Assembly: GCA_021786945.1 (NCBI GenBank)
Contig: JAJYMK010000003.1
Coordinates: 457,471-521,470, forward strand
Direction: 5' to 3'
Length of the DNA stretch: 64,000 nt
From: a bacterium
GTDB taxonomy: Bacteria > Patescibacteriota > Minisyncoccia > UBA6257 > 02-FULL-45-10c
Every line of letters begins with the position of its first letter. The first letter of the stretch is position 1. The position numbers were made by a program, and so were the translations under genes. Shown piece by piece: positions 16,255 through 60,965 of this stretch. The notes below the pieces were generated by a model. That model saw only the letters and a list, made by a program, of their open reading frames with translations, was not told the DNA's origin and did not search any database.

Positions 16255-16717
16255 CTACCTGTTGAAGGTGGGGACTCTTTCCATCCTTTCGATGAGGTCT
16301 TTGTCGCTATGGTAAGAGCAGTAATTCTTGCCCATCACCACGTCGCCGAGTATCTCGCCGATCCGCAACTGCGGATTGTGCTTCAGCGCATGCTTCAGCA
16401 TTTTTGCGAACTTGGCGTTCTGGTCGACAGTCCTGATCTTGTTCTGCATGTCCTTCGGAAAACCGAAGGCCAGCATCAGATCGCCCACGCTCGGCTGCCC
16501 CTCCCCGTGAAACGCTCTCAAGTCCATAGCGAACTCGAGATCGGTTTTGTACGAGAAGCAGCCCTCCCCGCTCATGATCCAAAAGATCAGGTTTGCCCAA
16601 GAGGTCTTGGGATTGCGGCAAGCCGCATTCTCAAACGCCTCGGCAAACCGGGCCGAATCCTTGTTCGACCTGTTGCACTTCTGCTCGCCGTAGTAGTTCC
16701 TTCTCTGATTTTTCATA
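16255..16717 (-). CDS. hypothetical protein (154 aa) encoded by a visibly G+C-rich segment
   Basis: Start set at ATG (MKNQRRNYYGEQK) preceded by AGGAGG; the ORF track's longer 16255-16824 version lacks an SD. Several overlapping ORFs on other frames/strands reflect high GC. No family recognised. Confidence 0.5.
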
Positions 16718-18410: not shown

Positions 18411-19013
18411 ATGAAATTCGAAAACCTTTCTGTAAAAGAAGTGGCCAGGGTAATGTCCCCGCTTTTAAAAAGAAACTTCCGGGAATGGAAGAATCTTAAA
18501 AAGCAGGTAATGCTCAAAAGCAAAATAAGTTTTTGCGACAAAGACGACGAAAAAATAGAAAAGCTTCTTTCGTCTGAACCCATGGCGCTGTTCTATGCTC
18601 ACTGGCTTAAATTCGAAAACCTGCAGGACGGCAAAGAAAAACTCGAAGAAAAAATAATCAGCTACATCAAGGGTTTATTCGGCAAAGAACTGAAAGATGA
18701 AAAAAGCGTTGAAAGACTTTATTCAAAATGCAGCTTGATAGCGGGTGTCAGCCGCATAAAAACAATCAAAATGATAGAAGCGGCTGTGGCTATGCAAGAT
18801 CTGATGAATAAGGACTTTCGGGAAATATTCGAAAATAAAAACGCCTACAAAGTAATCATTAAAAGCGCTTTAAAGGCCGAGGACTGGAAACTTTCTCAGT
18901 CTATTTTACTAGGGTGGATATCCCACTTCGAAATAGATCAGGAAAACGTCCTGGATTTCTACCGCATAAGCAACGTAATCATAGAAAAAAGAGAAAAAGA
19001 AATTTTCTCCTAA
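18411..19013 (+). CDS. hypothetical protein (200 aa)
   Basis: ORF with AAAGGAGG SD; terminator hairpin at 19023-19048; no family recognised. Confidence 0.5.
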   Translation: MKFENLSVKEVARVMSPLLKRNFREWKNLKKQVMLKSKISFCDKDDEKIEKLLSSEPMALFYAHWLKFENLQDGKEKLEEKIISYIKGLFGKELKDEKSVERLYSKCSLIAGVSRIKTIKMIEAAVAMQDLMNKDFREIFENKNAYKVIIKSALKAEDWKLSQSILLGWISHFEIDQENVLDFYRISNVIIEKREKEIFS

Positions 19014-26875: not shown

Positions 26876-27613
26876 ATGGCGCCGGAATGTGCTGTGGTGT
26901 TTGATTTCGATGGCACCCTCACGCCTAAATTCCACGTATCTCTTTTTAACGTCGTGGAAAAGGGTGTGCTCTCGGAAAAATATCTGCAAGAAACCGCAAT
27001 CCTGCGGAATAAGTACCTGCCAAAAGCAATGAGCGGCACTATTACACACAAAGAAGAAGCTGCCTGGCTCAGTGAAAATATAAATATTTTTATTAAAGCC
27101 GGCACAACCATAGACCAAGTAAAATATGCGCTAAAAGATGTGAGGCTAAGAATCAATGTCGTTGATTGCATGGCCCTGCTGAAATATAAACGCATACCAA
27201 TGGCTGTTATTTCTTACGGAGTCTATCAATTTATAGAAATCGTACTAAAAAACAACCATGCCTTGCCGCTTATAAATTCTATCTATGCCACAAAGCTTGA
27301 GGTAGACAAAGAAACCGGTAAAATTATCGGCTTCAATCCCGCAACAGTTCTTTTGCCAACACAAAAAGGCACTGCTTCGTTGCACTTCGCGAAATCCGTA
27401 AGAGTTGCGGAAAATAAAATACTTGCCGTTGGAGATTCACTGGTAGATTCCCTACTCGGCAGTCTCAAGGAAAACCGCTTCGGAATAGCCGAAGACGAAA
27501 CTCAATTAAAAAGAATACAAAATGTTATGGGCGAATGCGCAATTACCCAGGACTTTTCTCCGGTAATTAACTGGCTCATAAGAAAAATAGAAAATAAACA
27601 AGCCCCGCTTTAA
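26876..27613 (+). CDS. HAD-superfamily hydrolase
   Basis: motif I VVFDFDGTLT (DxDxT), later GDSLVDS (motif IV-like); AAAGGAGG SD. Confidence 0.7.
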   Translation: MAPECAVVFDFDGTLTPKFHVSLFNVVEKGVLSEKYLQETAILRNKYLPKAMSGTITHKEEAAWLSENINIFIKAGTTIDQVKYALKDVRLRINVVDCMALLKYKRIPMAVISYGVYQFIEIVLKNNHALPLINSIYATKLEVDKETGKIIGFNPATVLLPTQKGTASLHFAKSVRVAENKILAVGDSLVDSLLGSLKENRFGIAEDETQLKRIQNVMGECAITQDFSPVINWLIRKIENKQAPL

Positions 27614-31808: not shown

Positions 31809-32354
31809 TTAAAGCGGGTTGGCGGAGGAAAACAGCTCGAACGCCTTTTTAGTATCCAGGCGGCCGGAACCCAGAAAAAGATCCTTAAAGAAAGCGCCCA
31901 GCCTCTTCTGTTCGGCGTTGCTGAAATAAGCCAACGACGAAAACTTCAGAGGAAAGAGCTTGGATTTTTCTTCCAGGACTCTGTACTTACACTCGTCTTC
32001 GTTGCAGCAGGTAAAACGGTGGCCATAAGAACAGCCGCCATAGCTGTAACGGACGGAAAACATCTCCACTTTCTTGCGCTCTCCGTCATACGAGCAGTAA
32101 GGACACTCTTCGGAACTCTTAATGAACTCACCGGCCCTCATCACCCAAGCCAGGTGCAGATGCAACCTGTTGGGCAAAGAACCGGAAGCCATATTTTTAT
32201 CCGCTATATTCTTCAGATAGACCAGATATCCGTGATCCGCAAACATCAGCGCCTCTACGGACTGGCCGGCTTTTTTTCCGGACTTAAACATATACGGCCC
32301 GGACAACTCATAAGGAAAATTGCTTCCTTTTATCACTACGTTTACCAGAGCCAT
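31809..32354 (-). CDS. hypothetical Cys-rich protein (181 aa) on a G+C-rich segment
   Basis: GGAGG SD 5 nt upstream of ATG; Cys cluster ECPYCSYDGE...GGCSYGHRFTCCNEDEC suggests a zinc-binding module; opposite-strand ORF 31779-32402 rejected. Confidence 0.55.
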   Translation of the reverse strand: MALVNVVIKGSNFPYELSGPYMFKSGKKAGQSVEALMFADHGYLVYLKNIADKNMASGSLPNRLHLHLAWVMRAGEFIKSSEECPYCSYDGERKKVEMFSVRYSYGGCSYGHRFTCCNEDECKYRVLEEKSKLFPLKFSSLAYFSNAEQKRLGAFFKDLFLGSGRLDTKKAFELFSSANPL

Positions 32355-33494: not shown

Positions 33495-33566
33495 AGCAAC
33501 TCGCTGTTTAACAACTCCGACTGCGCCCTAAGCGCTGCCGGAAATATAAAAGGACGAGGAGAAAGC

Positions 33567-33920
33567 ATGAACAAAACCACGAAAACTGCGGTACTGGTGA
33601 TAGACACGGACACGACGATCAACGAGGACATCCTCAACGTGATCAGGACCAACCACGGCACGAACACGCGCATCAAGACGGTGCGCTCGGCCAAAGCGTT
33701 CGCGACCCCCTACGGGTTCACGAACCTGGTCCAGCAGTACACCACCGGGCGCAACACTACCGTGTACGCCCTCAAGACCGATCTGAAGGGTCCGGCCCTG
33801 AAGGCGGCGATGCAGACGGGCATCAAGTTCAACCTCCTGTTCAGGAACAGGAGCAGGAACTGGAACTCGGTCAGCGCCCGCCAGATCACGGCCTCCAGCC
33901 CGCGGCCGAAGTATAGCTAA
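33567..33920 (+). CDS. small protein, cassette paralog A (117 aa), unknown family
   Basis: AGGAG SD; shares HGTNTRI(K/R)xVRS, GFTxL(V/I)QQ, T(T/A)TVYA blocks with 34169-34495; G+C-rich; antisense ORFs rejected. Confidence 0.6.
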   Translation: MNKTTKTAVLVIDTDTTINEDILNVIRTNHGTNTRIKTVRSAKAFATPYGFTNLVQQYTTGRNTTVYALKTDLKGPALKAAMQTGIKFNLLFRNRSRNWNSVSARQITASSPRPKYS

Positions 33921-33928
33921 GCCGCGCA

Positions 33929-34072
33929 AGCAGCCGCAGAGCAGAGAGAGACAATGCGGAAAAGCCTATGAAGCCCGACAAAATAGTGGCTAAGTAGGTC
34001 GGCTACGGAGCCGAAGTGTAGTAAGCCCCGCATCATCCAACAAAACACGGATGGTGCGGGGCCTTTTTTTAT
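33929..34072 (+). repeat. conserved 144-nt 3' element (copy 1) ending in long-stem intrinsic terminator
   Basis: 142/144 identical to 34571-34714; internal hairpins GCCCGAC...GTCGGC and CGGCT-ACGG-AGCCG; terminator stem CCCCGCATCATCC/GGATGGTGCGGGG + T7. Confidence 0.75.
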
Positions 34073-34083
34073 TTTTAAATAAC

Positions 34084-34111
34084 TTGACTTTTATAAAAAC
34101 TATGCTAATAT
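34084..34111 (+). promoter_or_regulatory. promoter TTGACT-16-TAATAT for cassette 2
   Basis: Homologous to cassette 1 promoter. Confidence 0.5.
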
Positions 34112-34168
34112 ATTTTCTACCGTTTTAAAAAACGGTTCGGTACTTTAAAAAACAGGAGAAGTTATTTA

Positions 34169-34495
34169 ATGAACAACAAAAAGACTGTGGTTCTGGCGAC
34201 GAAGAGCGGCAACGTGGACAATGCGGTAATACGCATCATCAAGTCCAAACACGGGACTAACACGAGAATACGCTTCGTGCGGTCCAGCAGGGTTTTCAAC
34301 ACGGACTCGGGTTTCACTACCCTGATCCAGCAGAATCGCAATACCGCTACGGTGTACGCGATCCGCGAAGAACTGCCCCGCAACTCCTTCGAAACCGCGG
34401 TGAAAACCGGCCTGGCTTTCTGCATCCTGAACAAGGACGCAAACAAGGGCTGGAACATCTTCCACCGCCGCGAAAATAACGGCCTCGCCCAGTAA
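34169..34495 (+). CDS. small protein, cassette paralog B (108 aa), unknown family
   Basis: CAGGAGAAG SD; paralog of 33567-33920 (by-eye under half of positions identical); G+C-rich. Confidence 0.6.
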   Translation: MNNKKTVVLATKSGNVDNAVIRIIKSKHGTNTRIRFVRSSRVFNTDSGFTTLIQQNRNTATVYAIREELPRNSFETAVKTGLAFCILNKDANKGWNIFHRRENNGLAQ

Positions 34496-34570
34496 GTAAA
34501 CCAGGCCGATAGCGGCACGCAGCGTAGTTGCAGCGAAAGAAAAAGCAGCAAAAACGCAGTGAAAGAGAAA

Positions 34571-34714
34571 AGCAGCCGCAGAGCAGAGAGAGACAATGCG
34601 GAAAAGCCTATGAAGCCCGACAAAATAGTGGCTAAGTAGGTCGGCTACGGAGCCGCAGTGTAGTACGCCCCGCATCATCCAACAAAACACGGATGGTGCG
34701 GGGCCTTTTTTTAT
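34571..34714 (+). repeat. conserved 144-nt 3' element (copy 2) ending in long-stem intrinsic terminator
   Basis: Differs from copy 1 at two positions only (ccgAagtg/ccgCagtg; gtaAgcc/gtaCgcc). Confidence 0.75.
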
Positions 34715-34755
34715 CCCACGTATAAGTTTTATATGAGGGATTTATTTATTTCAGA

Positions 34756-47619: not shown

Positions 47620-48939
47620 TTAATTTTTTCTTAAAATATTTTTCAATTCTTCCAAATTATTTTCAATAAACAACGCTTTCTTTTGTTTGTTAATTATTTC
47701 CTTTAATTTTCCGGGAATTTCAATTTTTTTGCCAATTATCGGTTCAATGGCGTCTTTGAATTTTACGGGATGCGCAGTACTTAAAGAAATAATCACGTCG
47801 TCGATACCACTTTCTTGAGCAGCCTTAACAGCTACAGCGCTATGTGTATCCAATAAATATCCGACTTTTTCATAAACATTCCCGATTGTACGGGAAGTTT
47901 CTTCCTCAGTCACACTTATCCCTATAATGTCTTTTACCATTAATTTAGCGTTATTTTCGTATAAATCCAGCATCCTGGCAAAGTTAGAGGGATTACCCAC
48001 ATCCATTGAATTAGACATGGTTTTTTGCGAAGGACGAGGCTTATATACACCAGTATGGAGGTATTCCGGGACTACATCATTTATATTGGTAGCGGCAATA
48101 AACATACCTATTGGCAAGCCAATTCTTTTAGCTATAAGCCCGGCTGTTAAATTGCCGAAGTTGCCACTGGGAACACAAAAATTTACATCTTTAATTCCCT
48201 TTTTAACCAATTGGGCGAAACCAAAAATATAATAAAACATCTGTGGCAAAAGACGTCCAAAATTTATGGAGTTAGCCGAAGAAAATTCACCTTTTCCATT
48301 CAGTTCTTTATCACCCAAAATCTGCTTGGCTAATTTTTGGCAATCATCGAAAGCGCCATTTACCTCTACTGCGGTGATATTTCCGCCAAACGTCGTAAGC
48401 TGCTTTTCCTGAAGATCACTCACCTTTCCTGACGGATATAAAATATAAACTTTTATATTCGGCACATTATAAAAACCTGCGGCCACAGCGCTTCCTGTAT
48501 CTCCAGATGTGGCAACGATTATTTTCAATTCTTTTTTAGTTTGTCTTAAAAAATAACCCATCGCCCGAGACATAAATCTAGCGCCGAAATCCTTAAAAGC
48601 CATTGTCGGACCATGCCAAAGTTCTTCAACGTAAATATTATCACTGATTTTAACCAAGGGAGCCGGAAATCCTTCGCCGCAATCAATAAAAGCATCTGGA
48701 CTAAAAGCATCGTCAATTATTTCTTTCAAATCTTTTTCAGGAATATCATCAATAAATAATTTTCCGACTTCCAGGGCTATCTCGCCAAAGCTTTTGTTTG
48801 CCAAATCAGCCAAAAATTTATTATTCAAAGACGGAAAATTTTCGGGCATATACAATCCACCGTCCGGAGCCAAACCCTCGAAAAGGACGTCTTTAAACTT
48901 TTTGCCCTTTATTTGTTTATTAGTACTGTAATAATACAT
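47620..48939 (-). CDS. thrC: threonine synthase
   Basis: PLP-lysine motif region …HGPTMAFKDFGARF…, fold-type II PLP enzyme length/pattern of ThrC. Confidence 0.8.
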   Translation of the reverse strand: MYYYSTNKQIKGKKFKDVLFEGLAPDGGLYMPENFPSLNNKFLADLANKSFGEIALEVGKLFIDDIPEKDLKEIIDDAFSPDAFIDCGEGFPAPLVKISDNIYVEELWHGPTMAFKDFGARFMSRAMGYFLRQTKKELKIIVATSGDTGSAVAAGFYNVPNIKVYILYPSGKVSDLQEKQLTTFGGNITAVEVNGAFDDCQKLAKQILGDKELNGKGEFSSANSINFGRLLPQMFYYIFGFAQLVKKGIKDVNFCVPSGNFGNLTAGLIAKRIGLPIGMFIAATNINDVVPEYLHTGVYKPRPSQKTMSNSMDVGNPSNFARMLDLYENNAKLMVKDIIGISVTEEETSRTIGNVYEKVGYLLDTHSAVAVKAAQESGIDDVIISLSTAHPVKFKDAIEPIIGKKIEIPGKLKEIINKQKKALFIENNLEELKNILRKN

Positions 48940-48971
48940 ATACTTAATGATACTTTAACTGAAATAAAAAA

Positions 48972-49000
48972 AAAGCTCGCATGTTTATACGCGAGCTTTT
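48972..49000 (-). terminator. intrinsic terminator for 49012-49266
   Basis: AAAGCTCGC-ATGTTTATAC-GCGAGCTTT. Confidence 0.6.
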
Positions 49001-49011
49001 ATATTGTTTTT

Positions 49012-49266
49012 TTAAGGATTCACTTGAATCCCCCCTCCTGTTCTTATGCCAATATTACCATTTGTATCCACCCCCATAGATCCAGACTTCATTATGGTAA
49101 TGCCGACCGAAATATGGTCTTTTTTAGAACCACCCCTCTTCGAACAAGAACCGTTCTTTTTGTATTCAGCTAAGTTATAGCTGGTAAATATCATACCCAG
49201 AATAACCCCGCAGAACAAAACGACGAAGACAGCACCAATCTTCCAATCAGCTTTCCAATTCATCAT
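49012..49266 (-). CDS. hypothetical small membrane-anchored protein (84 aa)
   Basis: N-terminal TM helix, Gly-rich C-terminus. Confidence 0.4.
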   Translation of the reverse strand: MMNWKADWKIGAVFVVLFCGVILGMIFTSYNLAEYKKNGSCSKRGGSKKDHISVGITIMKSGSMGVDTNGNIGIRTGGGIQVNP

Positions 49267-49339
49267 ATCTTTTTCCCCTTTTTAGATTTTCAAAAATTCT
49301 AACATTTATAATACCACAAAAAATACTATTTGTCTAGGC

Positions 49340-49852
49340 CTAATAAATCAGTTTGATTATCTGTTCCACTAATTCCTCCTCGATTAAATTATCGGCTTTT
49401 ATAATATAATCCGCAAATTTTCTGTAAGCCGCGTCCCTTTCTTCAAAAAGCTTTTTCAATCCTTTTTCTTTCAGCCCAACTATACCACCCTTAATCGGCC
49501 TAAGCCCAAGTCTTATCTCGATTTCTTTTAGCGGAAGTTCTATATAAATAATTTTGGTCTCCCTTGCCACTTTTTCCATGGCTTCCACGGAATAAATAAG
49601 GCTTCCTCCCGGAGAAAAAATAATATCCGAATCCTCAAAATCTATTTCCAAGGTATATTGATTTTCCAAATTCAACAATTCTTTTTCTCCTTGTTTTTCC
49701 AGAATTTCATCATAACTTTTTCCAGTTTTTTCTTTTATCAAATCATCCAGATCAATAAAATCCCAGCCCAATTTATCAGCCACTAATTTTCCGATAGTAG
49801 ACTTCCCCGAAGTCGGCATCCCTATTAAAGTTATAGATTTTTTTTCTTTCAT
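49340..49852 (-). CDS. aroK: shikimate kinase
   Basis: Walker A ITLIGMPTSGKSTIGK, ~170 aa, AroK-like. Confidence 0.8.
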   Translation of the reverse strand: MKEKKSITLIGMPTSGKSTIGKLVADKLGWDFIDLDDLIKEKTGKSYDEILEKQGEKELLNLENQYTLEIDFEDSDIIFSPGGSLIYSVEAMEKVARETKIIYIELPLKEIEIRLGLRPIKGGIVGLKEKGLKKLFEERDAAYRKFADYIIKADNLIEEELVEQIIKLIY

Positions 49853-49940
49853 TAAGTTTATTATTTTCTAAATTTTATCATTTCCTCAAGCCGTTTCGCT
49901 CATCCCAGCGGATTCACTCACTAGTTCCTCGCCTCGCTCG

Positions 49941-50075
49941 TTCTATATACTAAATTGTCGTGGAGAAGATTCGGAGCTCCGACATGCTTGGTTCCGATGT
50001 CGGAGTGAGACTCAGGAGTTGTTCCGCGCCGGACGGAACAAACTCCGATTCTCGTAGACAATTTAGTATATAGAA
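49941..50075. repeat. MITE-like hairpin-rich repeat element, copy A (~135 bp, perfect 19-bp terminal inverted repeats)
   Basis: TIR TTCTATATACTAAATTGTC / GACAATTTAGTATATAGAA; internal hairpins CTCCGACATGCTTGGTTCCGATGTCGGAG and GGAGTTGTTCCG...CGGAACAAACTCC; core ~95% identical to reverse complement of 63490-63604. Confidence 0.7.
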
Positions 50076-50128
50076 CACCTTGCCCGCTCGGCTGAGCAGC
50101 TTTCGGAAAAAGATAAGATTTAGAAAAA

Positions 50129-51211
50129 TTATAAGATATATCCCTTTTTATATAATAACTCAGCTGTCAAAATAGCGCCTCCGGCTGCACCTCTTATGGT
50201 ATTGTGCGACAAAGCCACAAATTTCCAATCAAATGCAAAATCCTCACGGAATCTGCCACAAGTAATACCCATTCCTCTTCCGTAATCCCTATCCAATTTA
50301 GTTTGTGGCCTGTTCTCTTCGGCAAAATAATAAATAAACTTTTCAGGCGAAGACGGCAAACCTAATCCCGCCAAAGGATTTTTAAAATTATTTATTGAGT
50401 CAAGAATTTGCCTTAACGACGGCTTCTTTTTGAATTTAACCGCCACGCTAGCCATATGTCCATCGGAACAAGCAACTCTTATACAAGTAGCTGAAATATT
50501 TATATTTTTTGCAGGTACAATCTTTTTGCCCTTTATAGATCCCAAAATTTTCAATGGTTCTTTTTCAGTTTTTTCTTCTTCTCCGCCTATAAACGGGATG
50601 CAATTGTCCACCATTTCCGGCCAGGATTCAAAAGTTTTTCCGGCTCCGGAAATAGCCTGCAAAGTAGTCACCGAAACAGTTTTTGGGCCAAACTTTTTCA
50701 AGGCATGAATTATGGGTAAATACGACTGGAGGGAGCAATTCGGCTTTACAACTAACAAACCATTTTTCCAGCCCCGATTTTTTCTCTGAATATCTATAAT
50801 ATCCAAGTGGTCGCAATTCAACTCCGGCATAATCATAGGCACGTCATCCGTCCATCTGTGAGCGGAATTATTGGAAACCACCGCCACGCCAGCGGCAGCA
50901 TATCGCTCCTCAACTTCTTTGATTTTTTGCTTATCTAAATCTATTGCTGAAAAAACCAAATCAACGCTTTTTACGATCTCATCAAAATCTTCTTCAACAG
51001 CCTTAATAATTATATTTTTTACGTTTTCGGGAATAGCAGTTTTCATATTCCACCTTCCATTCATTACCTCTCCATATTTTTTCCCGGCTGACTGCGGCGA
51101 TGCGGCAACAACCACAACATTAAACCATGGGTGATTTTCCAAAAGAGAAATAAATCTCTGTCCGACCATTCCCGTAGCTCCTAAAATACCCACATTTATT
51201 TTTTTATTCAT
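50129..51211 (-). CDS. asd: aspartate-semialdehyde dehydrogenase
   Basis: N-terminal VGILGATGMVGQRF NAD(P)-binding, active-site Cys region NCSLQ, 360 aa. Confidence 0.85.
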   Translation of the reverse strand: MNKKINVGILGATGMVGQRFISLLENHPWFNVVVVAASPQSAGKKYGEVMNGRWNMKTAIPENVKNIIIKAVEEDFDEIVKSVDLVFSAIDLDKQKIKEVEERYAAAGVAVVSNNSAHRWTDDVPMIMPELNCDHLDIIDIQRKNRGWKNGLLVVKPNCSLQSYLPIIHALKKFGPKTVSVTTLQAISGAGKTFESWPEMVDNCIPFIGGEEEKTEKEPLKILGSIKGKKIVPAKNINISATCIRVACSDGHMASVAVKFKKKPSLRQILDSINNFKNPLAGLGLPSSPEKFIYYFAEENRPQTKLDRDYGRGMGITCGRFREDFAFDWKFVALSHNTIRGAAGGAILTAELLYKKGYIL

Positions 51212-51223
51212 ATTTTTATTAAT

Positions 51224-53665
51224 TTATATTTTCAAAATATCAGCCAATACTCCGCCCGCCGTAACATCCGCTCCGGCACCCGGCCCTTGCACAACCAACG
51301 GTCTTTCTTTATATCTCTTACTGTAAAAAGCGAAAATATTGTCCGCGCCGCGGGTAGAAGCCAACGGATTATCTTTGGACACCATCTCCAATTTTGCCGA
51401 CGCCTCGCTCTTCTGAATCTTAGCCACATACCTCAAAACACAGCCAATTTTTTCGGCTTTTTCGGAAAGTTTTCTGAATTGAGAATCAAACTTCTTTAAC
51501 TCGGACATAAACACTTCCACGTCTTTTATTTTTCGTAATTTTTCCGGAACCAGGCTTTCTATTTTTATATCCTTAAAATCCAATTCCAAGCCGATTTCCC
51601 TGGCCAATATAAGCAGTTTTCTGCCTACATCCTGGCCGCTCAAATCTTCACGCGGATCCGGCTCGGTATAACCCAATTTTCTCGCCTTAGCCACAATTTC
51701 ACTGAAAGACACGCCGCTGCCAAAATTATTAAAAATATAGCTGAGTGTTCCCGAAAATATACCCTCGATTCTTTCTATTTTATCTCCGCTAGCAATCAAA
51801 TCCCTTAAAGTCGAGATAACCGGCAAAGCGGCGCCCACATTAGTTTCATAAAAAAACTTCTTTCTATTGCCGGCCAAAACATCCCTAAGTTTTTTATAAT
51901 CTTTCATTGGCGAAACATTGAATTTTTTATTGGGAGAAACAATACTGAAACCAGCTTCGGCAATTTTAATATATTTTTTGGAAATAAATTCGCTGGCCGT
52001 GCAATCGACAAAAACCTTATTGGCAAAATTAAATTTTTGCGCGTCATCAATCCATTTATCAAAATTTGCCGCTTCTCCTCCTTTTTCCATAATCTTTTTC
52101 CAATTTTTCAAATCAATTCCCCGTTCATTGAGTAGCATTTTTTTATCGTTGATGATTCCACAAACACGGAGAGCTCCGCCGAGTTCATAAATTTGTCCGA
52201 GTAATGTTCCGCCAATATTTCCGGTTCCAACTAAAAATATATTTTTTAAACCACCAAAAACAAACTGATCATGGATAAGATTTAATGCTTTTATTTTATC
52301 TTTACCTTCCACCGTCAAAGAAATATTTCTTTCCGATCCGCCTTGGGCAATAGCGGTAACACTTATTTTGCTGTCTCCCAATGCTTTGAATAATTTTCCC
52401 GAGATACCCGGTGTTCCGCGCATATTATCGCCGACAATGGCGATAATTGCCTGATTAGAAATAAAGCTCAAATTAACCGATTTATTTCCTATTTCTTTTT
52501 TAAATTCCTGTTTTAAAGAATCCAGAGCTGCTTCCAATTCGGACGTTTTAATAGCCAGACAAATAGTGTGCTCAGAAGACGCCTGGGAAATCAAAATAAC
52601 ATTGGCTTTGGCGCGCCTAGTGGCGTCAAAAACTCTGGCTGCGCTTCCGGGAATACCTATCAAACTGACTCCGCCGACAATCACCAGTGAAATATCGTCT
52701 ATAGAAGTAATTCCTTTCACCAAAGAAACTCCGTGATCGGGATTTTTAAGCACAAACGTACCTACAGCTGCTGGATTAAACGTATTTTTTATGACAATAG
52801 GAATTCCCTTTTTAACAGCCGGCAACATAGTGGCGGGATGGATAACTTTAGCTCCGAAATAAGCCAATTCTACAGCCTCCTCATAGCTCACCTCTTTCAA
52901 AACAACGGCATTTTTTACCAATTTAGGATCGGCGCTTAAAATTCCGTCTACATCCGTCCAAATCTCAACAATTTTGACGCTCAAAGCCGCACCGAAAATA
53001 GCAGCCGAATAATCGGAACCGCCTCTTCCCAAAGTCGTAGTTTCGTTATTTTTCGTTGAACCCAAAAAACCGGTAATCACGGGGATTCCCTGTTTATCTT
53101 TAAAATATTTTTTTATGATTTTATTTGTTTCCGAAAAATCCACCGTCGCATTCACAAAATTATCATCCGTTTTCACCAATTCTCTGGCATCGACAAAATA
53201 ACTTTTTTTGGAAAGCCCGTCCTTAATATATCCCGACACTATAAAAGCCGAGAATCTTTCTCCGAAGCTGGCCACCAAATCTAGTTGTTTGGAAGAAGCT
53301 TCTTTTTTGGAAAATATTTTCTCTAAAACTTCGCTTAATTCTCCAATTAGCTTTTCAACGTATTCAAAGGCAATTGCCTGATTATTTTTGGATTTTATCA
53401 ATTTTTTAATTGATTCTATATGGCGCTTTTTTATTAACCCAACCTCATCTTTATATTTTATGTCTCCAGCCGCAGCAAATTTAGCCGACTTCAAAAGCTG
53501 ATCGGTAATTCCCTGAAAAGCCGAAACCACCATAGCGACTCCATCCCCTCGATTATGCTCGGGGCAAGCTTTTTTTGCTGCATCAACTACTATTTTAGAC
53601 GCCTTCTTAATCATTTCCGGAGTACCTACCGACGAACCTCCAAATTTTAATATTTTCGTAATCAT
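51224..53665 (-). CDS. thrA: bifunctional aspartokinase / homoserine dehydrogenase
   Basis: N-terminal aspartokinase (KFGGSSVG…), central ACT region, C-terminal homoserine dehydrogenase (LVGTGNIGGTLL… NAD-binding); 813 aa. Confidence 0.85.
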   Translation of the reverse strand: MITKILKFGGSSVGTPEMIKKASKIVVDAAKKACPEHNRGDGVAMVVSAFQGITDQLLKSAKFAAAGDIKYKDEVGLIKKRHIESIKKLIKSKNNQAIAFEYVEKLIGELSEVLEKIFSKKEASSKQLDLVASFGERFSAFIVSGYIKDGLSKKSYFVDARELVKTDDNFVNATVDFSETNKIIKKYFKDKQGIPVITGFLGSTKNNETTTLGRGGSDYSAAIFGAALSVKIVEIWTDVDGILSADPKLVKNAVVLKEVSYEEAVELAYFGAKVIHPATMLPAVKKGIPIVIKNTFNPAAVGTFVLKNPDHGVSLVKGITSIDDISLVIVGGVSLIGIPGSAARVFDATRRAKANVILISQASSEHTICLAIKTSELEAALDSLKQEFKKEIGNKSVNLSFISNQAIIAIVGDNMRGTPGISGKLFKALGDSKISVTAIAQGGSERNISLTVEGKDKIKALNLIHDQFVFGGLKNIFLVGTGNIGGTLLGQIYELGGALRVCGIINDKKMLLNERGIDLKNWKKIMEKGGEAANFDKWIDDAQKFNFANKVFVDCTASEFISKKYIKIAEAGFSIVSPNKKFNVSPMKDYKKLRDVLAGNRKKFFYETNVGAALPVISTLRDLIASGDKIERIEGIFSGTLSYIFNNFGSGVSFSEIVAKARKLGYTEPDPREDLSGQDVGRKLLILAREIGLELDFKDIKIESLVPEKLRKIKDVEVFMSELKKFDSQFRKLSEKAEKIGCVLRYVAKIQKSEASAKLEMVSKDNPLASTRGADNIFAFYSKRYKERPLVVQGPGAGADVTAGGVLADILKI

Positions 53666-53861
53666 TTTTATTTATTAATAATTATTTTTCCAAAAAAATT
53701 CCCAGCTCTTAAGCCGGGGTTAGTTTATTTTTATACAATTCAACTAAGACCTCGGCTAAGGGCTTGTGGTAGTAGTTGTAGTTGTAAAAACGACTTTATT
53801 CATTACTTCTTTATCATAACAACCGTCAATTTTTAGTCAAAGCCGGAAAAGGTGAATAAAA

Positions 53862-53905
53862 ATCCCCCTGTTCATAACAGAACAAGGGGATGTTTTTTTT
53901 TACTT
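53862..53905. terminator. bidirectional intrinsic terminator
   Basis: ATCCCCCTGTTC-ATAACAG-AACAAGGGGAT with flanking A5 and T9. Confidence 0.7.
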
Positions 53906-54532
53906 CCTGAAAGGAAGCACGCCATCGATAAGGCCGTAAGCTTTCGCTTCTTCGGCGGACATATAGAGGTTCCTCTCCATGTCCTTCTGGACCTTTTCGA
54001 AGGTCTGGCCGCAATGCTTAGCGATGATCTCGGTAAGCACCTTCTTGTTGAGCTGCATTTCCTTGGCCTCGATTTCGATGTCCGTTGCCTGACCGGAAAT
54101 GCCGCCGCCCATTATCAGGGGCTGGTGGATCATGATACGGGAGTTTGGCAGCGCGAAACGCTTACCTTTTGTTCCCGACGCCAGGATCACCGCACCGAAG
54201 CTCATCGCCATCCCCATACACACGGTAGAGACAGGGCTCTTGATGAACTGCATAGCATCGTAAACAGCCAAGCCGGCCGTTACCATGCCGCCGGGCGAAT
54301 TTATGTAAAGGCAGATATCTTTGGAATCATCTTGTGAATCCAAGTACAGCATCTGCGCGATCAGTGAATTCGCTGACTCGGTAGTGAACTCGCCTTCGTA
54401 ACCACCCACAAAGATAATGCGGTCGGTTAAAAGACGGGAGTAGATATCGTAAGCCCTTTCCACGCCAGCCACCTTCCCGATGACAGTCGGGATAACGCTG
54501 ACGGCTTTTATCACGCCACGTTCCTTTTTCAT
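53900..54532 (-). CDS. clpP: ATP-dependent Clp protease proteolytic subunit (G+C-rich paralog)
   Basis: [11 protein letters not shown]…[15 protein letters not shown], catalytic Ser in GMAMSFG, His in MIHQP; strong AAGGAGGAAGG SD; coding sequence visibly G+C-richer than the adjacent clpP. Confidence 0.85.
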
Positions 54533-54619
54533 AATCCTTCCTCCTTACCAAGAATTTCTGAATCGAACTTAATTTTCAAGCTCCTAATTTAAACCTAAAT
54601 TAAAAATAAAACTCCGTCA

Positions 54620-54652
54620 ATAATAAAAGACCTCTGTTATATAGAGGTCTTT
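54620..54652 (-). terminator. intrinsic terminator between the two clpP genes
   Basis: GAAAGACCTCT-ATATAACA-GAGGTCTTT + TATT on minus strand. Confidence 0.6.
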
Positions 54653-54660
54653 CAAAAAAA

Positions 54661-55263
54661 TTATTTTTTAACTTTTATTATCTCGTCCACTAAACCATAT
54701 TCTTTTGCTTCCTGCGGACTAAGCCAATAATCTCTGTCTGTATCTTTTTGTATTTTACTCAAAGATTGACCCGTGTGTTTAGCTAGAATCTGATTAAGCT
54801 GTTCTCTCATCCTCAAAATATGCTTTGCACTGATTTCGATCTCGGTAGCTTGGCCGCCGATTCCCTCGCTCATCACCTGATGGATCAAAACTTCGGAATT
54901 CGGAAGTATAAATCTTTTTCCTTTAGCTCCCGCGGCCAGAAGTACGGCGCCCATAGAAGCCGATATTCCTACACCAATGGTAGAAACATCACACTTCACA
55001 TGCTGCATAGTATCATAAATAGCCAATCCCGCACTCACGGAACCGCCCGGAGAATTTATATAAAGCTTAATGTCTTTTTTGGGATCCTCGTGTTCCAAAA
55101 AAAGCAGCTGGGCAATAATTGTATTCGCCATACCATCACTTACAGGACCGCCCAAGAATATTATCCTCTCCTTTAAAAGGCGAGAATAAATATCGTAAGC
55201 CCTCTCACCCATAGAACTTTTTTCAATAACTGTCGGGATTAAATATTCATTTTTTTCATTCAT
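54661..55263 (-). CDS. clpP: ATP-dependent Clp protease proteolytic subunit (genome-typical A+T-rich paralog)
   Basis: [28 protein letters not shown], Ser in GISASMG, His in LIHQV; 200 aa. Confidence 0.9.
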
Positions 55264-55542: not shown

Positions 55543-56127
55543 ATGGAAAGCAAAATAAAAGTTGTTCTGGAAGGCATCGGCCGCGGCCTCCTCATGCATA
55601 AATTTTGCATCGAGGCTTACGAAAACCAGGTAAAGAAGAACAAAGCCAAGCCTTCGCCTGAAGAAGAGGCGGAAAGAGTGGCTTATCGCCTGGCGCCCGA
55701 AAAAGAATCCGAAAAAGGACAGCTCTGCCTTCCGGCCGAGCACTTCATAGGATCTCTTATCTCGGCGGGAGCTGGCTTCAAGCAAGTCGGCGGCGGCAAG
55801 AAAACCTACAAAAGCGTACTCACCGGCAATCTGGATATCTGCCCAGAAAACGTGGGCCTCACGGACGCGAAAGGCACTCCGCTGAAGGACTACAAAATAG
55901 ACAGTCGCCCGGTATGTATCAGGGCAACTAAAGGCCGGATTATCCGCCACCGCCCGCTTATAGAAGTAGGCTGGCGCGCGGAATTCACATTAGTACTCTC
56001 GGACGATTCGGTTCCGCTAGAGGTAATCAAGGCGGTTCTCGAAGAAGCCGGTAAAAGCAAATGCGTCGGCGATTTTCGCCCGCGCTTCGGCCAGTTCCGA
56101 GTTATTTCCGTGGACAAAATTCAGTAA
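55543..56127 (+). CDS. hypothetical protein (194 aa) on a G+C-rich segment
   Basis: AGGAGG SD 7 nt upstream of ATG; no family recognised; followed by (NNGGT)n array and terminator. Confidence 0.55.
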   Translation: MESKIKVVLEGIGRGLLMHKFCIEAYENQVKKNKAKPSPEEEAERVAYRLAPEKESEKGQLCLPAEHFIGSLISAGAGFKQVGGGKKTYKSVLTGNLDICPENVGLTDAKGTPLKDYKIDSRPVCIRATKGRIIRHRPLIEVGWRAEFTLVLSDDSVPLEVIKAVLEEAGKSKCVGDFRPRFGQFRVISVDKIQ

Positions 56128-56329: not shown

Positions 56330-57469
56330 CTATTTAGAGCTTTCCAAAAAATCAAATACTTTTTTGTTTTTCACTATATCATAACTGTAACTATAGATTC
56401 TTTGTGGATCTATTTTTTGTGCATGCTCTGGGCGCAAAGTCGCCAAAAACTTATTGCTTTCCATTTCCACTTCTTCTGAAGTCGGCTCTATTTTTTCATC
56501 TTTGGCTATTTTATACAAAACCAAATTGGAAACAACGCTTTTTTCGGCTTCGGGTCGCAATTTCTTCCTGACTTCCTCCTCTTTAAAATCTTTTTTGAAA
56601 TACATCTTATATTCTTCCAGCATTCCGGACAGAGTTTTTTCTATCATCACTTCAGGAATCTCAATTTTTGAATCTTTTCCAATTTCTTCAAGTGCTTTTA
56701 TTCTCAACCTCTCGGATTCCTTCAATTCCTTTTCTTTTTTAATACCGTCTTTTATGCTGTTTTTCAATTCTTCCAAGGTTTTAAAATTTCCGAGCTCTTT
56801 TACCAACTCGTCATTCAACTCTGGTAATTGTCTCTCAAAAACGGAAGCTAATTTTACTCCGTCAAATTCCTCTCCTTCTTTATGACCAACTATTTTTTCA
56901 TCCAATCCTTTTTCTAAGTGTGAATGACCCAAAATAAACTGATCCGGCTTTCCTTTGTATTCTATATTCACCACATCTCCCATTTTTGCGGGATTTGCAG
57001 ATCTTACTATTTTTGCCCTGGAATTTAAAATCCAATTTATAGCCTCCTGAACCTCGTCATCGCCTGCGGTTATCTCTCTTTTTTCCTCAAAAATCTTTTT
57101 GGCGATTTTTTTATAATCTCCAAGTTTTACTTCCGGAAAAACAACCAAATCTATCTTGAAAATAATTCCTTCTGGTTTTTCTTCTAGGTCAATTTTAGGC
57201 TGATCAACAATTTCCCATTCATTTTCCTGGGTTATTTCTTTCAATATCTCCCTTATAGCTTTTGTAGCGGCTTCTCCGAAAACTTTATCCTTGTCTATAA
57301 CGGCATCGGCCATTTGTTTGGGTGCTGCGCCTTTCCTGAACCCTTTAATTTCCACATCTTTTAAAGCTTCTTGATAAACAACTTCCCAATATTTAGAAAA
57401 TTCTACTTGGGTCAGAGTAACCTCCAATTGCTTAACAGAACCCGGAAGATCTTTGTGAGTATATTTCAT
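56330..57469 (-). CDS. tig: trigger factor
   Basis: N-terminal ribosome-binding signature GFRKGAAP, central PPIase-like and C-terminal domains; 379 aa. Confidence 0.9.
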   Translation of the reverse strand: MKYTHKDLPGSVKQLEVTLTQVEFSKYWEVVYQEALKDVEIKGFRKGAAPKQMADAVIDKDKVFGEAATKAIREILKEITQENEWEIVDQPKIDLEEKPEGIIFKIDLVVFPEVKLGDYKKIAKKIFEEKREITAGDDEVQEAINWILNSRAKIVRSANPAKMGDVVNIEYKGKPDQFILGHSHLEKGLDEKIVGHKEGEEFDGVKLASVFERQLPELNDELVKELGNFKTLEELKNSIKDGIKKEKELKESERLRIKALEEIGKDSKIEIPEVMIEKTLSGMLEEYKMYFKKDFKEEEVRKKLRPEAEKSVVSNLVLYKIAKDEKIEPTSEEVEMESNKFLATLRPEHAQKIDPQRIYSYSYDIVKNKKVFDFLESSK

Positions 57470-57591: not shown

Positions 57592-58737
57592 TTATTGAAT
57601 TCCTAACTTTGTAAGCATCGCTTTCATGCCGTTATAAGAAGTGGATAATACAAATAAATTATTTGCAGTCCATCCATAATTCAAAGAGGCTCCCGTTTTC
57701 GAGAAACTAATATATCTGGTTGGGAGATTATTAGCCTTACCATCTTTAAAACTGCTGCCAATTTTTGTTCCAGGATTTTGAATATAAAGATTAGTCAAAC
57801 TCGCAGAACTTTCAATTTTTGCCATTAAAGTTTTAGCGACAGCAACATCGGCGCCATTTTTTAATTTAGCTATTAAACCAAACCATGACCCATTGGCATC
57901 ATAAAAAATAACACTAGTAAAATCATCTTCAAAAAACGGAGTTAATTCAGCTGAAGTTATCTCCGGCAAAAACAAAGGGAGCGAATCAGCAAAAACTAAC
58001 TGCCCACCCTCATTCGAAAGAACAACTTCTTTTAAGTAAGTCTGTGAAGCGGGCTTATTATTTGATTCTGCTATTAATAAATCTCTTACTGAAGCTAAAG
58101 TTGTAGATCCCACGACATTCAAATTAATTGAGCTGTCGGCAGGATTGGGAACCAATAAAGAAATATGTGGTTTTAAAACTGGTTGCAAAGGAACTTCCGG
58201 GGTTGTAGTTGCAACATCTTCGGTTGTTGTAGCCATTTCTTCAGTTGAAGTGGCGACTGGCGGAATATTTTCCGGAGTAGTTACTGTTGTGGAAGGAGTT
58301 TCGGGGATATTTGTTTGCGGGGCCGGAGTATTAACGGAAATTACCGGTTTGGCGAACATCGGATAAATATAAACGTATCCGGCATAAGCGGCGCCGGCCA
58401 ATACCAAAATTAAAATTGTTATCAAAACAAAAATTTTTCCTTTCTTTTTTGGAGCTTCAGCCGGCGGTAAAACACCCTCAGCGGCACCCGGTCTGATCAT
58501 TCCCTCTTCTTTGGATAAATCATCCAACTCCGAAGAAGCCTGTTTTTTAATTTCAGGCGGAGTAAAAGCTTCTGGTACTGGATTTTCTCCTCCGGATTGT
58601 TTAACAGACTGAAGATCGGACTGCATGGTCCTTAAAGTTATTTCCGGCGGAGGAGGTGGAGGTGGCATCGAAGGCCCACCCTGTCCCTGGCCCGGATTAC
58701 TCGTTTCTCCCCAATTTTGTTGTTTAAAATCTTCCAT
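57592..58737 (-). CDS. Pro/Thr-rich membrane protein, hypothetical
   Basis: Poly-Pro N-terminus (PPPPPPP), single TM helix, T/P-rich linker, C-terminal globular domain. Confidence 0.5.
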   Translation of the reverse strand: MEDFKQQNWGETSNPGQGQGGPSMPPPPPPPEITLRTMQSDLQSVKQSGGENPVPEAFTPPEIKKQASSELDDLSKEEGMIRPGAAEGVLPPAEAPKKKGKIFVLITILILVLAGAAYAGYVYIYPMFAKPVISVNTPAPQTNIPETPSTTVTTPENIPPVATSTEEMATTTEDVATTTPEVPLQPVLKPHISLLVPNPADSSINLNVVGSTTLASVRDLLIAESNNKPASQTYLKEVVLSNEGGQLVFADSLPLFLPEITSAELTPFFEDDFTSVIFYDANGSWFGLIAKLKNGADVAVAKTLMAKIESSASLTNLYIQNPGTKIGSSFKDGKANNLPTRYISFSKTGASLNYGWTANNLFVLSTSYNGMKAMLTKLGIQ

Positions 58738-58832: not shown

Positions 58833-60965
58833 TTATTTGTCCGTCTCGGGTTTATTCAAAGCCTTTAAGGACAAACTAACTTTTCCCCCTTCGGCTCTGA
58901 TTACTTTTGCCCTGACAAAATCACCAAGCTTAACAACGTCTTCAACTTTTTTAACAAATCCTTCTTTCAATTCGGAAACGTGGATCATGCCGTCTTTATT
59001 TGGACCAAATTCCACTATAGCTCCAAAATCCAAAATCTTTACAACGTTTCCTTCAACAATCTGTCCGACTTCTATATCTGTAACAATGGATTTAACAATT
59101 TTAAATGCGGCTTCGGCGGTTTCCTTGTTCGGACCCGCAACATAAACTTTTCCGCTCTGATCGATATCGATAGTTGTAGCTCCCGTAGCGGCAATAATAC
59201 CGTTAATAGTTTTTCCTCCGGGGCCTATAACTTCACCGATTTTTTCTGGATTAATAGTTAAAGACAAAACAACCGGGGCGTATTCGGAAAGCTCTTTTCT
59301 GGGTTCTTTCAAAGCTCCTGTAATTGTTTTCAAAATATGAAGTCTGGCCAATTTAGCTTGTGCCAAAACCTTTTCAACCATTTCCATATTTATACCGTTA
59401 ATCTTAACGTCCAATTGTATCGCGGTAACACCCTCTTCGGTTCCGGCAACTTTAAAATCCATATCACCATAATGATCTTCTGGGCCTTGAATATCGGTAA
59501 GTACTTTATACTTCTCACCCTTTTCATCGGTTATCAGACCCATAGCAATACCGGCAGCCGGTCTTCTGATTGGAACTCCGGCATCCATCAAAGATAATCC
59601 TCCTGCACAAACAGTGGCCATAGAAGAAGAACCATTCGAAGAAAGAATTTCCGAAACTACACGGATAACATAAGGAAAAGCTTCATAAGAAGGCAACAAC
59701 GGACGTAAAGCTTTTTCGGCTAAAGATCCGTGGCCTATGTCTCTTCTGCCCGGACCCCTGAATCCTCCGGTTTCACCAACGGAATAAGGCGGAAAATTAT
59801 AATGAAGCATAAATCTCCTCTTTATTGAATTTCTCATGCTTTCCACGAGCTGTTCGGAGCCCGGAGGAGCAATTGTGGTAACAGATAAAGATTGTGTATT
59901 TCCTCTTACGAATAAAGCCGATCCATGAACGCGGTTCAAAATGCCAACTTCGGCATAAAGATCCCTGACTTCATCCAATTTTCTGCCGTCTGGCCTCTTT
60001 TCTTCATCAAGAATTTTTTTATGCAAAATTTCATCGAGCCTGGACTCCATATAAACCTCGGCGGCAATATATTCTTTTTCTTCACCACCCATATCTTCCA
60101 GCATGAGCCTCATATCGTCTTTTATGCGATAAAGCATTTCTTCTCTTTTAATCTTGTCCGGATTATAAAGGGCTTCTTCCAATTTATTGCCAAAAAAGTC
60201 ATTAAGTTTTTGCTCTAAATCTTTTTCAGGAACAGCCAAATAAACTTCTACTTTAGGTTTAGCCAATTCTTTTGCTACAGTCTCCTGGAATTTTGTAAGC
60301 TCGGTAATTTGCTGCTGAGCCATAGCAAATCCGCCGACAACATATTTTTCGTTAACCTCATTTCCGCCAAGCTCAATCATATTTATCTTATCTTTGGTTC
60401 CGGCTACAAAAGCATCGAAATCCAAATCGGACTCCTTGTCTTTTATATCCATCAAAGATGGATTTACCAAAACCTCTTCTTTGTTTTTGAATTTAGAAAT
60501 TTTAACTCCGGCAACAGGTCCGCCCCAAGGAATCCTGGATACGGTCAATGCCATAGAAGCGGTCAATAATCCGATAAAATCCGGATCATTAACACTATCA
60601 ATCTGCAAAACAGTCACTACCACCTGCACTTCCCTGCGCATGGCAGAGTTGAACAAAGGCCTGATTGTCCTGTCTATTAATCTTCCCGAAAGAATGGCTT
60701 CGTCTGAAGACTTACCCTCTCTTCGTGAAAATCTGCTGCCCAAAATTTTACCGGCGGCATAAAACTTTTCTTCGTAATTTACCGTCAACGGAAAATAATC
60801 CATTCCCGCTTTATCCGACTTACCCATCACCACCGTGGCCAAAACCACAGTATCGCCATATCTGCCAATAATGGCAGAATCAGCCTGTTCGCCAACCCTT
60901 GAAACCTCAAAAGAAAGCGGCCTGCCCGCAAACTCGGTTTTAAAAACTCTTCTTTTTATATCCAT
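58833..60965 (-). CDS. pnp: polyribonucleotide nucleotidyltransferase (PNPase)
   Basis: Two RNase PH-like domains, KH and S1 domains at C-terminus (…GKVIGPGGKTIN…; …VGQIVEGNVVKILDFGAIVEF…); 710 aa. Confidence 0.95.
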   Translation of the reverse strand: MDIKRRVFKTEFAGRPLSFEVSRVGEQADSAIIGRYGDTVVLATVVMGKSDKAGMDYFPLTVNYEEKFYAAGKILGSRFSRREGKSSDEAILSGRLIDRTIRPLFNSAMRREVQVVVTVLQIDSVNDPDFIGLLTASMALTVSRIPWGGPVAGVKISKFKNKEEVLVNPSLMDIKDKESDLDFDAFVAGTKDKINMIELGGNEVNEKYVVGGFAMAQQQITELTKFQETVAKELAKPKVEVYLAVPEKDLEQKLNDFFGNKLEEALYNPDKIKREEMLYRIKDDMRLMLEDMGGEEKEYIAAEVYMESRLDEILHKKILDEEKRPDGRKLDEVRDLYAEVGILNRVHGSALFVRGNTQSLSVTTIAPPGSEQLVESMRNSIKRRFMLHYNFPPYSVGETGGFRGPGRRDIGHGSLAEKALRPLLPSYEAFPYVIRVVSEILSSNGSSSMATVCAGGLSLMDAGVPIRRPAAGIAMGLITDEKGEKYKVLTDIQGPEDHYGDMDFKVAGTEEGVTAIQLDVKINGINMEMVEKVLAQAKLARLHILKTITGALKEPRKELSEYAPVVLSLTINPEKIGEVIGPGGKTINGIIAATGATTIDIDQSGKVYVAGPNKETAEAAFKIVKSIVTDIEVGQIVEGNVVKILDFGAIVEFGPNKDGMIHVSELKEGFVKKVEDVVKLGDFVRAKVIRAEGGKVSLSLKALNKPETDK

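Follow-up and report, generated by a model that had tools for sequence, protein, structure and literature searches.

A 64-kb stretch of contig JAJYMK010000003.1 from a Patescibacterium (hereafter the window, to whose numbering all positions refer) carries two neighbouring clpP genes of different descent. The AT-rich copy is the native Patescibacteria ClpP gene and the GC-rich copy is a xenolog from an Elusimicrobiota-like lineage, an assignment that is well supported. The pair had been picked out in an earlier sequence-only reading as tandem clpP open reading frames (ORFs) of contrasting composition, and both are indeed complete ORFs that lie in tandem on the minus strand at the coordinates which that reading had given, with a GC content at third codon positions (GC3) of 0.67 against 0.37. 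As a whole, the explanation that we consider probable is that an old xenolog of the Elusimicrobiota type has been kept beside the native clpP, where its product may, less certainly, act in mixed rings.

Two clpP genes of contrasting composition

54661-55263, minus strand: native clpP, 200 aa, with S103, H128 and D178; AT-rich, without a Shine-Dalgarno (SD) sequence; PF00574 E-value 2e-84
53900-54532, minus strand: xenologous clpP of the Elusimicrobiota type, 210 aa, with S111, H136 and N188; PF00574 E-value 1e-76

Both products belong to the ClpP family, scoring 253.9 bits (GC-rich copy) and 279.3 bits (native copy) with PF00574, for which the cut-off is 20.2, and 285.5 and 322.6 bits, respectively, with NCBIfam NF001368, for which it is 249. 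The equivalog model TIGR00493 (cut-off 308.6) is reached by neither, the GC-rich copy scoring 268.8 and the native copy 305.4. The two proteins are 55% identical.

The GC-rich copy has a GC content of 0.521 and a GC3 of 0.673, compared to 0.401 and 0.373 for the native copy. Among 22 Pfam-supported genes of the window, GC3 is 0.343 ± 0.034 with a maximum of 0.406, so that the GC-rich copy stands 9.8 standard deviations out in GC3 and 4.5 in GC, far outside the gene-to-gene variance. GC contents at the first and second codon positions are nearly equal between the copies, indicating that the contrast is mostly synonymous. The intergenic DNA on either side of the GC-rich gene is AT-rich (0.28 and 0.32), and the composition switches abruptly at the ORF borders. 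Such a switch could be produced by an assembly chimera or by contamination; however, an identical GC-rich protein with the same neighbours is found on eight contigs from independent samples and assemblers, which excludes a chimera, and assemblies from JGI, ENA, NCBI and Logan contain orthologous pairs. The probability that remains for an artefact of this kind is negligible.

Active site and surface features of the GC-rich copy

The GC-rich copy was aligned to Escherichia coli ClpP and to solved structures, among which the best ClpP match has an E-value of 4e-68. The catalytic triad Ser97-His122-Asp171 (E. coli numbering) is intact in the native copy, where D178 occupies the last position, whereas the GC-rich copy has an asparagine there (N188, codon AAC at 53969-53971) and hence a Ser-His-Asn triad. 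Both copies had been called canonical ClpP on the basis of their serine and histidine contexts; this holds for family membership, but not for the third triad residue of the GC-rich copy or for the two insertions that it carries. In addition, a phenylalanine (F112) replaces the methionine directly after the catalytic serine. The first insertion, of three residues, lies before helix B at approximately residues 43-45 (GGYEGEF), the second, also of three residues, follows the catalytic histidine at approximately residues 140-142, and the N-terminus is extended by 12 residues. In an AlphaFold2 model of the monomer (mean predicted local distance difference test score, pLDDT, of 79), insertion 1 falls in the beta/alphaB loop and insertion 2 in a low-confidence loop after the catalytic histidine that leads into the handle helix.

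The hydrophobic pocket of E. coli ClpP onto which AAA+ partners dock is lined by L48, F49, Y62, F82, I90, M92, F112, L114 and L189. In a sequence-level check, the corresponding residues are L, Y, Y, F, V, M, F, L and L in the GC-rich copy and L, F, Y, H, I, V, F, L and I in the native copy, suggesting that the docking pocket is retained in the former.

Origin of the two copies

The closest homologues of the native copy are ClpPs of Patescibacteria, Paceibacterota and Harrisonbacteria, at 76-96% identity. The GC-rich copy matches about 20 Patescibacteria orthologues (74-95% identity) and then many Elusimicrobiota ClpPs (70-78%). All 120 of its 120 best database matches share the asparagine and insertion 1, and most share insertion 2. 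A GTDB scan of one genome per species was made with peptide patterns; among its 80 best loci, 76 belong to Elusimicrobiota or unclassified GC-rich metagenome-assembled genomes and four to Patescibacteria. Asn171, Phe98 and insertion 1 are present in the window protein, in 8/8 Patescibacteria orthologues and in 76/76 Elusimicrobiota loci; Asn171 and Phe98 are missing from all 38 ClpPs of the native Patescibacteria type. Insertion 2 is found in the window protein and most members of the subfamily and is shortened in several Elusimicrobiota sequences.

A neighbour-joining (NJ) tree with 200 bootstraps was computed over 190 columns from 192 sequences, among which were native-type Patescibacteria ClpPs, 65 representatives of diverse clusters and three reference ClpPs. 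Matches in the library of 50%-identity representatives were often fused ClpPs and served as outgroups only. The Patescibacteria GC-rich copies are monophyletic (0.82) and group with the Elusimicrobiota ClpPs to the exclusion of everything else, the native copy included (0.975). The suggestion of the sequence-only reading that one copy is a xenolog is borne out by this grouping: the two copies do not cluster together, nor does their difference in GC lie within the variance of the window.

An in-lineage tandem duplication, followed by codon selection linked to expression, would account for the tandem, same-strand arrangement and for the strong SD sequence of the second copy. It fits poorly with copies that are only 55% identical while one of them resembles Elusimicrobiota ClpPs at 70-78% and shares their insertions and asparagine, and it is contradicted by the tree. 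Moreover, the housekeeping genes tig, pnp and recA have ordinary GC3 and no SD sequence, and no gene-conversion tract joins the copies. Duplication is thus very unlikely.

In the Elusimicrobiota loci, the Asn-type gene is the single clpP within 5 kb on either side. The GC content of these loci is 0.37-0.72, and all but three are at 0.50 or above. A tig-clpP-lon context was shown by Pfam for one locus (L013), a lon-type Walker A motif follows in about 25 more, and no clpX-type Walker A motif was found within 5 kb in any Elusimicrobiota locus scanned (L011-L087). The Asn-type subfamily therefore appears to be the tig-clpP-lon housekeeping ClpP of Elusimicrobiota and the only clpP at the canonical locus. 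The direction of transfer, into Patescibacteria, follows from several facts: the gene fits Elusimicrobiota phylum-wide in composition and position, and in Patescibacteria it is a compositional outlier, confined to one small clade and extra to the native clpP.

A phage as the vector was considered and rejected, since the best relative in a scan of viral contigs is 67% identical and the rest are at most 55%. Phage head-maturation proteases (PHROG 94/133, NF045542) share the S14 fold and give a partial profile match to the window ClpP; however, the match covers the core only and is weak, far below the cellular ClpP models, and no capsid or phage genes lie nearby, so this identity was rejected as well.

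Age of the transfer and selection on both copies

Eight further genomes of relatives, obtained in independent projects (L001, L003, L005, L006, L008, L009, L010 and L065), also carry the clpP pair. The adjacency of the xenolog to the native clpP region is kept in 9/9 genomes, and in seven of the nine the two genes are in tandem; in the remaining two (L005 and L065), the tig-clpP block is inverted and the xenolog is still directly upstream of thrA. Outgroup Patescibacteria, whose native ClpP is about 81% identical, have a single clpP in the order tig-clpP-(small ORFs)-tyrS-thrA, indicating that the extra gene was gained on the branch leading to the clade, at a site between clpP and the thr operon.

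Both copies are under purifying selection, with dN/dS, the ratio of non-synonymous to synonymous substitution rates, of 0.045-0.14 for the xenolog and 0.009-0.06 for the native copy. Non-synonymous change is about 2.25 times faster in the xenolog than in the native copy, dS being mostly above 1, and the xenolog evolves at the same rate as its Elusimicrobiota orthologues. In all nine genomes, the xenolog has a higher GC3 than its local background, the excess being 0.10-0.33, and its value follows the composition of the host, from 0.33 in hosts with a background GC3 of 0.20 to 0.67 in the window genome. At conserved 4-fold degenerate sites, third-base identity is 0.52 within the main clade of Patescibacteria xenologs, where composition predicts 0.28; when the main clade is compared with the deep one, it is close to the predicted value. 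The GC3 excess and the pattern at 4-fold sites together indicate that the GC-richness is the incomplete amelioration of an old import. Selection that holds GC3 high is not needed as an explanation, as the 4-fold sites of the main clade are unsaturated and amelioration is largely complete in the deep clade.

The sequence-only reading had also raised a recent acquisition, and a second protease newly gained by the window genome would agree with the strong contrast in GC3 (0.67 against 0.34 for its surroundings). It does not survive the comparison of genomes: orthologues occupy the same position in at least nine genomes, with proteins that differ by up to 30% and dS above 1, so that synonymous sites are largely saturated; partial amelioration is seen in every genome and both copies are under purifying selection; the promoter and SD sequence are conserved; and the xenolog tree mirrors the divergence of the native clpP. 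We regard a recent gain as highly improbable, and the transfer as old.

The N-terminal gating loop, in which E14-R15 is conserved, has V/M-I/V in Elusimicrobiota ClpPs. Patescibacteria xenologs of the main clade have an E-R pair at this place, as in the host ClpP, and those of the deep clade have T/V-M. Gene conversion from the native copy was rejected as the source of the match because codon identity is scattered and forms no consistent tract across genomes; single-base paths from V-M to E-R suffice, making gene conversion unnecessary. The native ClpP carries four substitutions specific to the xenolog clade (P85C, K146R, E165Q and F172Y), none of them catalytic, and a compensatory change in the native protein was rejected on these grounds.

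According to these data, a single horizontal transfer brought the second clpP into the ancestor of a small Paceibacteria-like subclade of Patescibacteria, from an Elusimicrobiota-like donor in which the Asn-type ClpP is the housekeeping enzyme. The gene was inserted between clpP and the thr operon, where it has its own putative promoter, 5' untranslated region (5'UTR) motif, strong SD sequence and terminator. Purifying selection has kept it, and its GC-rich codons are gradually giving way to the AT-rich composition of the host.

Expression signals

54615-54654, minus strand: intrinsic-terminator-like hairpin and U-run after the native clpP; 12-bp stem, -15.3 kcal/mol, z -4.06
54592-54620, minus strand: promoter-like site of the GC-rich clpP, TTGACG, 17 nt, TAGGTT; recognised by conservation
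54574-54589, minus strand: 5'UTR motif AATTAGGAGCTTGAAA, just downstream of the xenolog promoter
54540-54546, minus strand: SD sequence AAGGAGG, 7 nt before the xenolog ATG
53862-53891, minus strand: intrinsic-terminator-like hairpin and U-run after the GC-rich clpP; 12-bp stem with six GC pairs, -21.2 kcal/mol, z -4.36

The sequence-only reading had assigned the two genes to separate transcription units, and the signals between them, a terminator followed by a promoter that is conserved in nine genomes, support this as far as sequence can. None of 200 shuffled sequences folds as well as the hairpin after the native clpP, which was detected by RNA folding and missed by the terminator scan. A hairpin and T-run are seen at the same place, just before the xenolog promoter, in 7/7 tandem genomes. 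The promoter function of TTGACG-17-TAGGTT is likewise suggested by conservation, since TTGAC, the TAnnnT hexamer and their 17-nt spacing are invariant in the nine-genome alignment; in a consensus promoter scan, the site falls below threshold because of its weak -10 box. The columns A.T.AG.A..TTGA.A of AATTAGGAGCTTGAAA are also invariant in the nine genomes, and no copies beyond chance were found elsewhere in the window; the motif may be an operator or a leader element. An equivalent strong hairpin and T-run follow the xenolog in seven of nine genomes, and in L003 and L009, the first 60 nt 3' of the gene fold weakly and the hairpin begins further down.

The SD sequence of the GC-rich copy is as strong as had been noticed, and its core is found upstream of the xenolog in 9/9 genomes; no SD core lies upstream of the native clpP of the window. 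Only eight of 53 window ORFs have an SD core, and seven of these eight are GC-rich:

SD-led ORFs: 16255-16716 (minus), 18411-19013 (plus), 26876-27613 (plus), 31809-32354 (minus), 33567-33920 (plus), 34169-34495 (plus), 53900-54532 (minus) and 55543-56127 (plus)

Expressed by composition, an SD core precedes 7/8 ORFs with GC3 above 0.44 and 1/45 low-GC3 ORFs (Fisher p = 4e-7), and the same split is seen around clpP in relatives. The AT-rich genes tig, pnp, recA, ftsK, thrA and native clpP have no SD sequence. In the GC-rich group of Elusimicrobiota that holds the closest genes (group 1), a TACAAT box lies 4-9 nt before the clpP ATG in many members, which suggests that many of these mRNAs are leaderless and, furthermore, that the SD sequence of the xenolog was not simply inherited from the donor.

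Mode of action

In the model that leads for the mode of action, expression of the xenolog would be regulated separately, and seven copies of its product would form a ring that stacks on a ring of native ClpP. The mixed tetradecamer would have an altered activity or specificity, a situation known from Listeria ClpP1/ClpP2. By the same analogy, the Asn-triad subunit would need an Asp-triad partner to reach its active conformation. This mixed 7+7 particle is placed first because of the Asn triad, the adjacency to the native clpP and the host-type E-R pair in the N-terminal loop, and we give it, taken by itself, slightly less than an even chance. In Listeria, the Asn-bearing ClpP1 is an inactive heptamer that is activated by ClpP2 in a heterocomplex (PMC9257651), and a D172N variant of Staphylococcus aureus ClpP is compact and inactive (PMC9035409).

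Several points weigh against the explanation that we prefer. As to origin, the peptide patterns of the GTDB scan were taken from the query and bias the sampling towards the Asn-type subfamily, and the tree, made by NJ only, gives weak support (0.445) to a Patescibacteria clade nested within Elusimicrobiota as opposed to a sister of that group. As to the mixed particle, the Asn-type ClpP of the donor phylum probably works as a homo-oligomer, so the asparagine need not imply dependence on a partner. Moreover, the docking-pocket residues are kept in the xenolog, unlike in Listeria ClpP1; the two clpP genes appear to be transcribed separately; and clpX, clpC and clpA are absent from the 64-kb window according to Pfam searches of large ORFs and a Walker A scan.

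Alternatively, the xenolog, with the same origin, could work alone as a second Clp protease, a homo-tetradecamer under separate regulation and with a substrate range of its own, a possibility that is nearly as likely as the mixed particle and that we rate at somewhat less than even. The Asn-type ClpP is the single one at the tig-clpP-lon locus of Elusimicrobiota and is presumably self-sufficient there, the docking pocket and the Ser/His/oxyanion context look intact in the xenolog, the gene has what appear to be a separate promoter and terminator, and its pace of evolution is that of its Elusimicrobiota orthologues. A protease that works alone fits less well with a xenolog tightly kept beside the native clpP in every genome and with an N-terminal loop remodelled to the host type, and the Asn-triad ClpPs studied so far are inactive alone.

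An extra ClpP in a producer of acyldepsipeptides (ADEP) protects the cell. The window copy could, by extension, be a resistance or decoy subunit against ClpP-targeting toxins or phage factors: the extra gene was acquired and appears to be regulated separately, and both the active site of its product and the region that follows the catalytic histidine are altered. However, no biosynthetic or defence genes were found nearby by Pfam, no dedicated search for defence families (PADLOC) having been made, and the neighbouring GC-rich orf194 is found in unrelated contexts elsewhere. Such a role is improbable.

Comparison with known ClpP systems

Systems with two ClpPs are known in Listeria, mycobacteria, Chlamydia, Pseudomonas and cyanobacteria, and a member with an Asn triad is known from Listeria. 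The preferred reading, an old xenolog in mixed rings with the native ClpP, resembles the L. monocytogenes system, in which one isoform is Ser-His-Asn and the other Ser-His-Asp and the genes are transcribed separately (PMC9257651). In both cases, the Asn isoform is the non-standard partner, as N188 compared with D178 at the window locus. Listeria ClpP1 is, however, a divergent paralogue without chaperone-docking sites, whereas the window xenolog appears to retain the pocket, is highly similar to standard ClpPs (E-value 4e-68 to the best solved ClpP) and comes from another phylum, lying beside a putative partner.

Mycobacterium tuberculosis ClpP1P2 has two adjacent clpP genes downstream of tig, as does the window, and its active form is a mixed 7+7 tetradecamer (PMC9035409). 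Both of its proteins have Asp triads, are encoded in one operon and are inactive alone, whereas the window shows one Asn triad, one foreign gene and, as far as can be read from the DNA, two transcription units rather than an operon.

The housekeeping ClpP of Elusimicrobiota shares with the window xenolog N171, F98, the GG[YP][ED]G insertion, Y49 and, in most members, the LI[MW]GGGISGQ insertion, at 70-78% identity. It is a single clpP in a tig-clpP-lon context without an N-terminal extension and with V/M-I/V instead of E14-R15, whereas the Patescibacteria xenolog is an extra copy with a 12-residue N-terminal extension, an E-R pair regained in the main clade, an SD sequence and a new putative promoter. 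No papers on the ClpP of Elusimicrobiota or Patescibacteria were found in the literature. Collectively, these data give good support to an old transfer that produced a two-ClpP arrangement of a type already known, and the system itself is not of a new type. What sets it apart is that the Asn partner is a xenolog from another phylum, that it belongs to an uncharacterised subfamily which elsewhere is the housekeeping ClpP of a phylum, and that the host is a Patescibacterium with a reduced genome.

Neighbouring features of the window

Pfam and ORF data give the minus-strand gene order pnp, a gene of 381 aa, tig, clpP, the second clpP and the thr operon, and an Rfam search of the window returned tRNAs only. 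The genes around the clpP pair are as follows:

58833-60965, minus strand: pnp
57592-58737, minus strand: gene of 381 aa with no assigned function
56330-57469, minus strand: tig
55543-56127, plus strand, opposite to the clpP genes: orf194, a GC-rich ORF of 194 aa
51224-53665, minus strand: thrA; the rest of the thr operon is asd, a SKI-family kinase gene and thrC

The trigger factor encoded by tig at 56330-57469 (minus) has 379 aa in the xenolog clade and matches Trigger_N and Trigger_C only; the trigger factors of outgroup Patescibacteria (L104-L106) have 416-422 aa and also match the FKBP_C peptidyl-prolyl isomerase (PPIase) domain.

The SD-led orf194 (GC3 0.59) has no Pfam or NCBIfam match and a weak one to phrog_4652 (E-value 1e-12). 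About 50 homologues, all in Patescibacteria or unnamed records, occur in unrelated contexts, and no relative was found in the scan of viral contigs. L005 and L065 lack it, and L003 has a decayed copy. A link to the xenolog was rejected, since the homologues lie in unrelated contexts and three members of the clade that keep the xenolog have lost or decayed copies of orf194.

A thr-operon attenuator lies between the xenolog terminator and thrA, at 53701-53840 on the minus strand. Its promoter is TTGACT-16-TATGAT (53813-53840). The leader peptide, MNKVVFTTTTTTTSP (53756-53803), is encoded with an unbroken run of seven threonine codons, and the terminator hairpin (53701-53718) precedes the thrA ATG by 36 nt. 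A leader ORF with a threonine run precedes thrA in eight of nine Patescibacteria loci checked, single-clpP outgroups included. The threonine pathway block (47620-53665, minus) comprises a fused aspartokinase/homoserine dehydrogenase, asd, a SKI-family kinase in the place of thrB, and thrC; it looks complete and is conserved beside clpP across the Patescibacteria examined. Such a block is unusual for Patescibacteria, which generally lack amino-acid biosynthesis.

A tandemly duplicated cassette with a GC3 of 0.77-0.91 is located at 33500-34720 (plus) in a tRNA-rich stretch. Its two small ORFs, at 33567-33920 (117 aa) and 34169-34495 (108 aa), are paralogues with 38% identity (E-value 3e-22), and neither matches Pfam or PHROG. 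A 145-nt repeat, with 99% identity between its two copies (33928-34072 and 34570-34714), lies behind each ORF and ends in a GC hairpin and T-run.

Implications

The genomes of Patescibacteria are minimal, and gene loss is thought to prevail in them. A foreign gene of core proteostasis that has long been kept beside the native one represents a selective gain in a central machine, and the clpP pair is a natural experiment on the co-assembly of ClpP rings across phyla. The Elusimicrobiota-type ClpP is an uncharacterised Asn-triad subfamily and a natural test case, Asp-to-Asn being treated as inactivating.

A bolder proposal, which we think unlikely but worth stating, is that throughout Elusimicrobiota the ClpP with a Ser-His-Asn triad serves as a housekeeping protease that is fully active by itself, and that the Patescibacteria clade recruited it as a conditionally expressed ring that mixes with native ClpP, within a class of SD-led, GC-rich cassettes. 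If this is true, an active Asn ClpP in Elusimicrobiota would contradict the view of a crippled triad drawn from Listeria ClpP1 and S. aureus D172N. The xenolog would then be one of a distinct class of GC-rich, SD-led, single-gene cassettes among AT-rich genes without SD sequences, and two regimes of translation initiation would coexist, with foreign genes kept on the SD-dependent one. The near confinement of SD sequences to GC-rich accessory genes bears on how SD-poor bacteria express the genes that they acquire.

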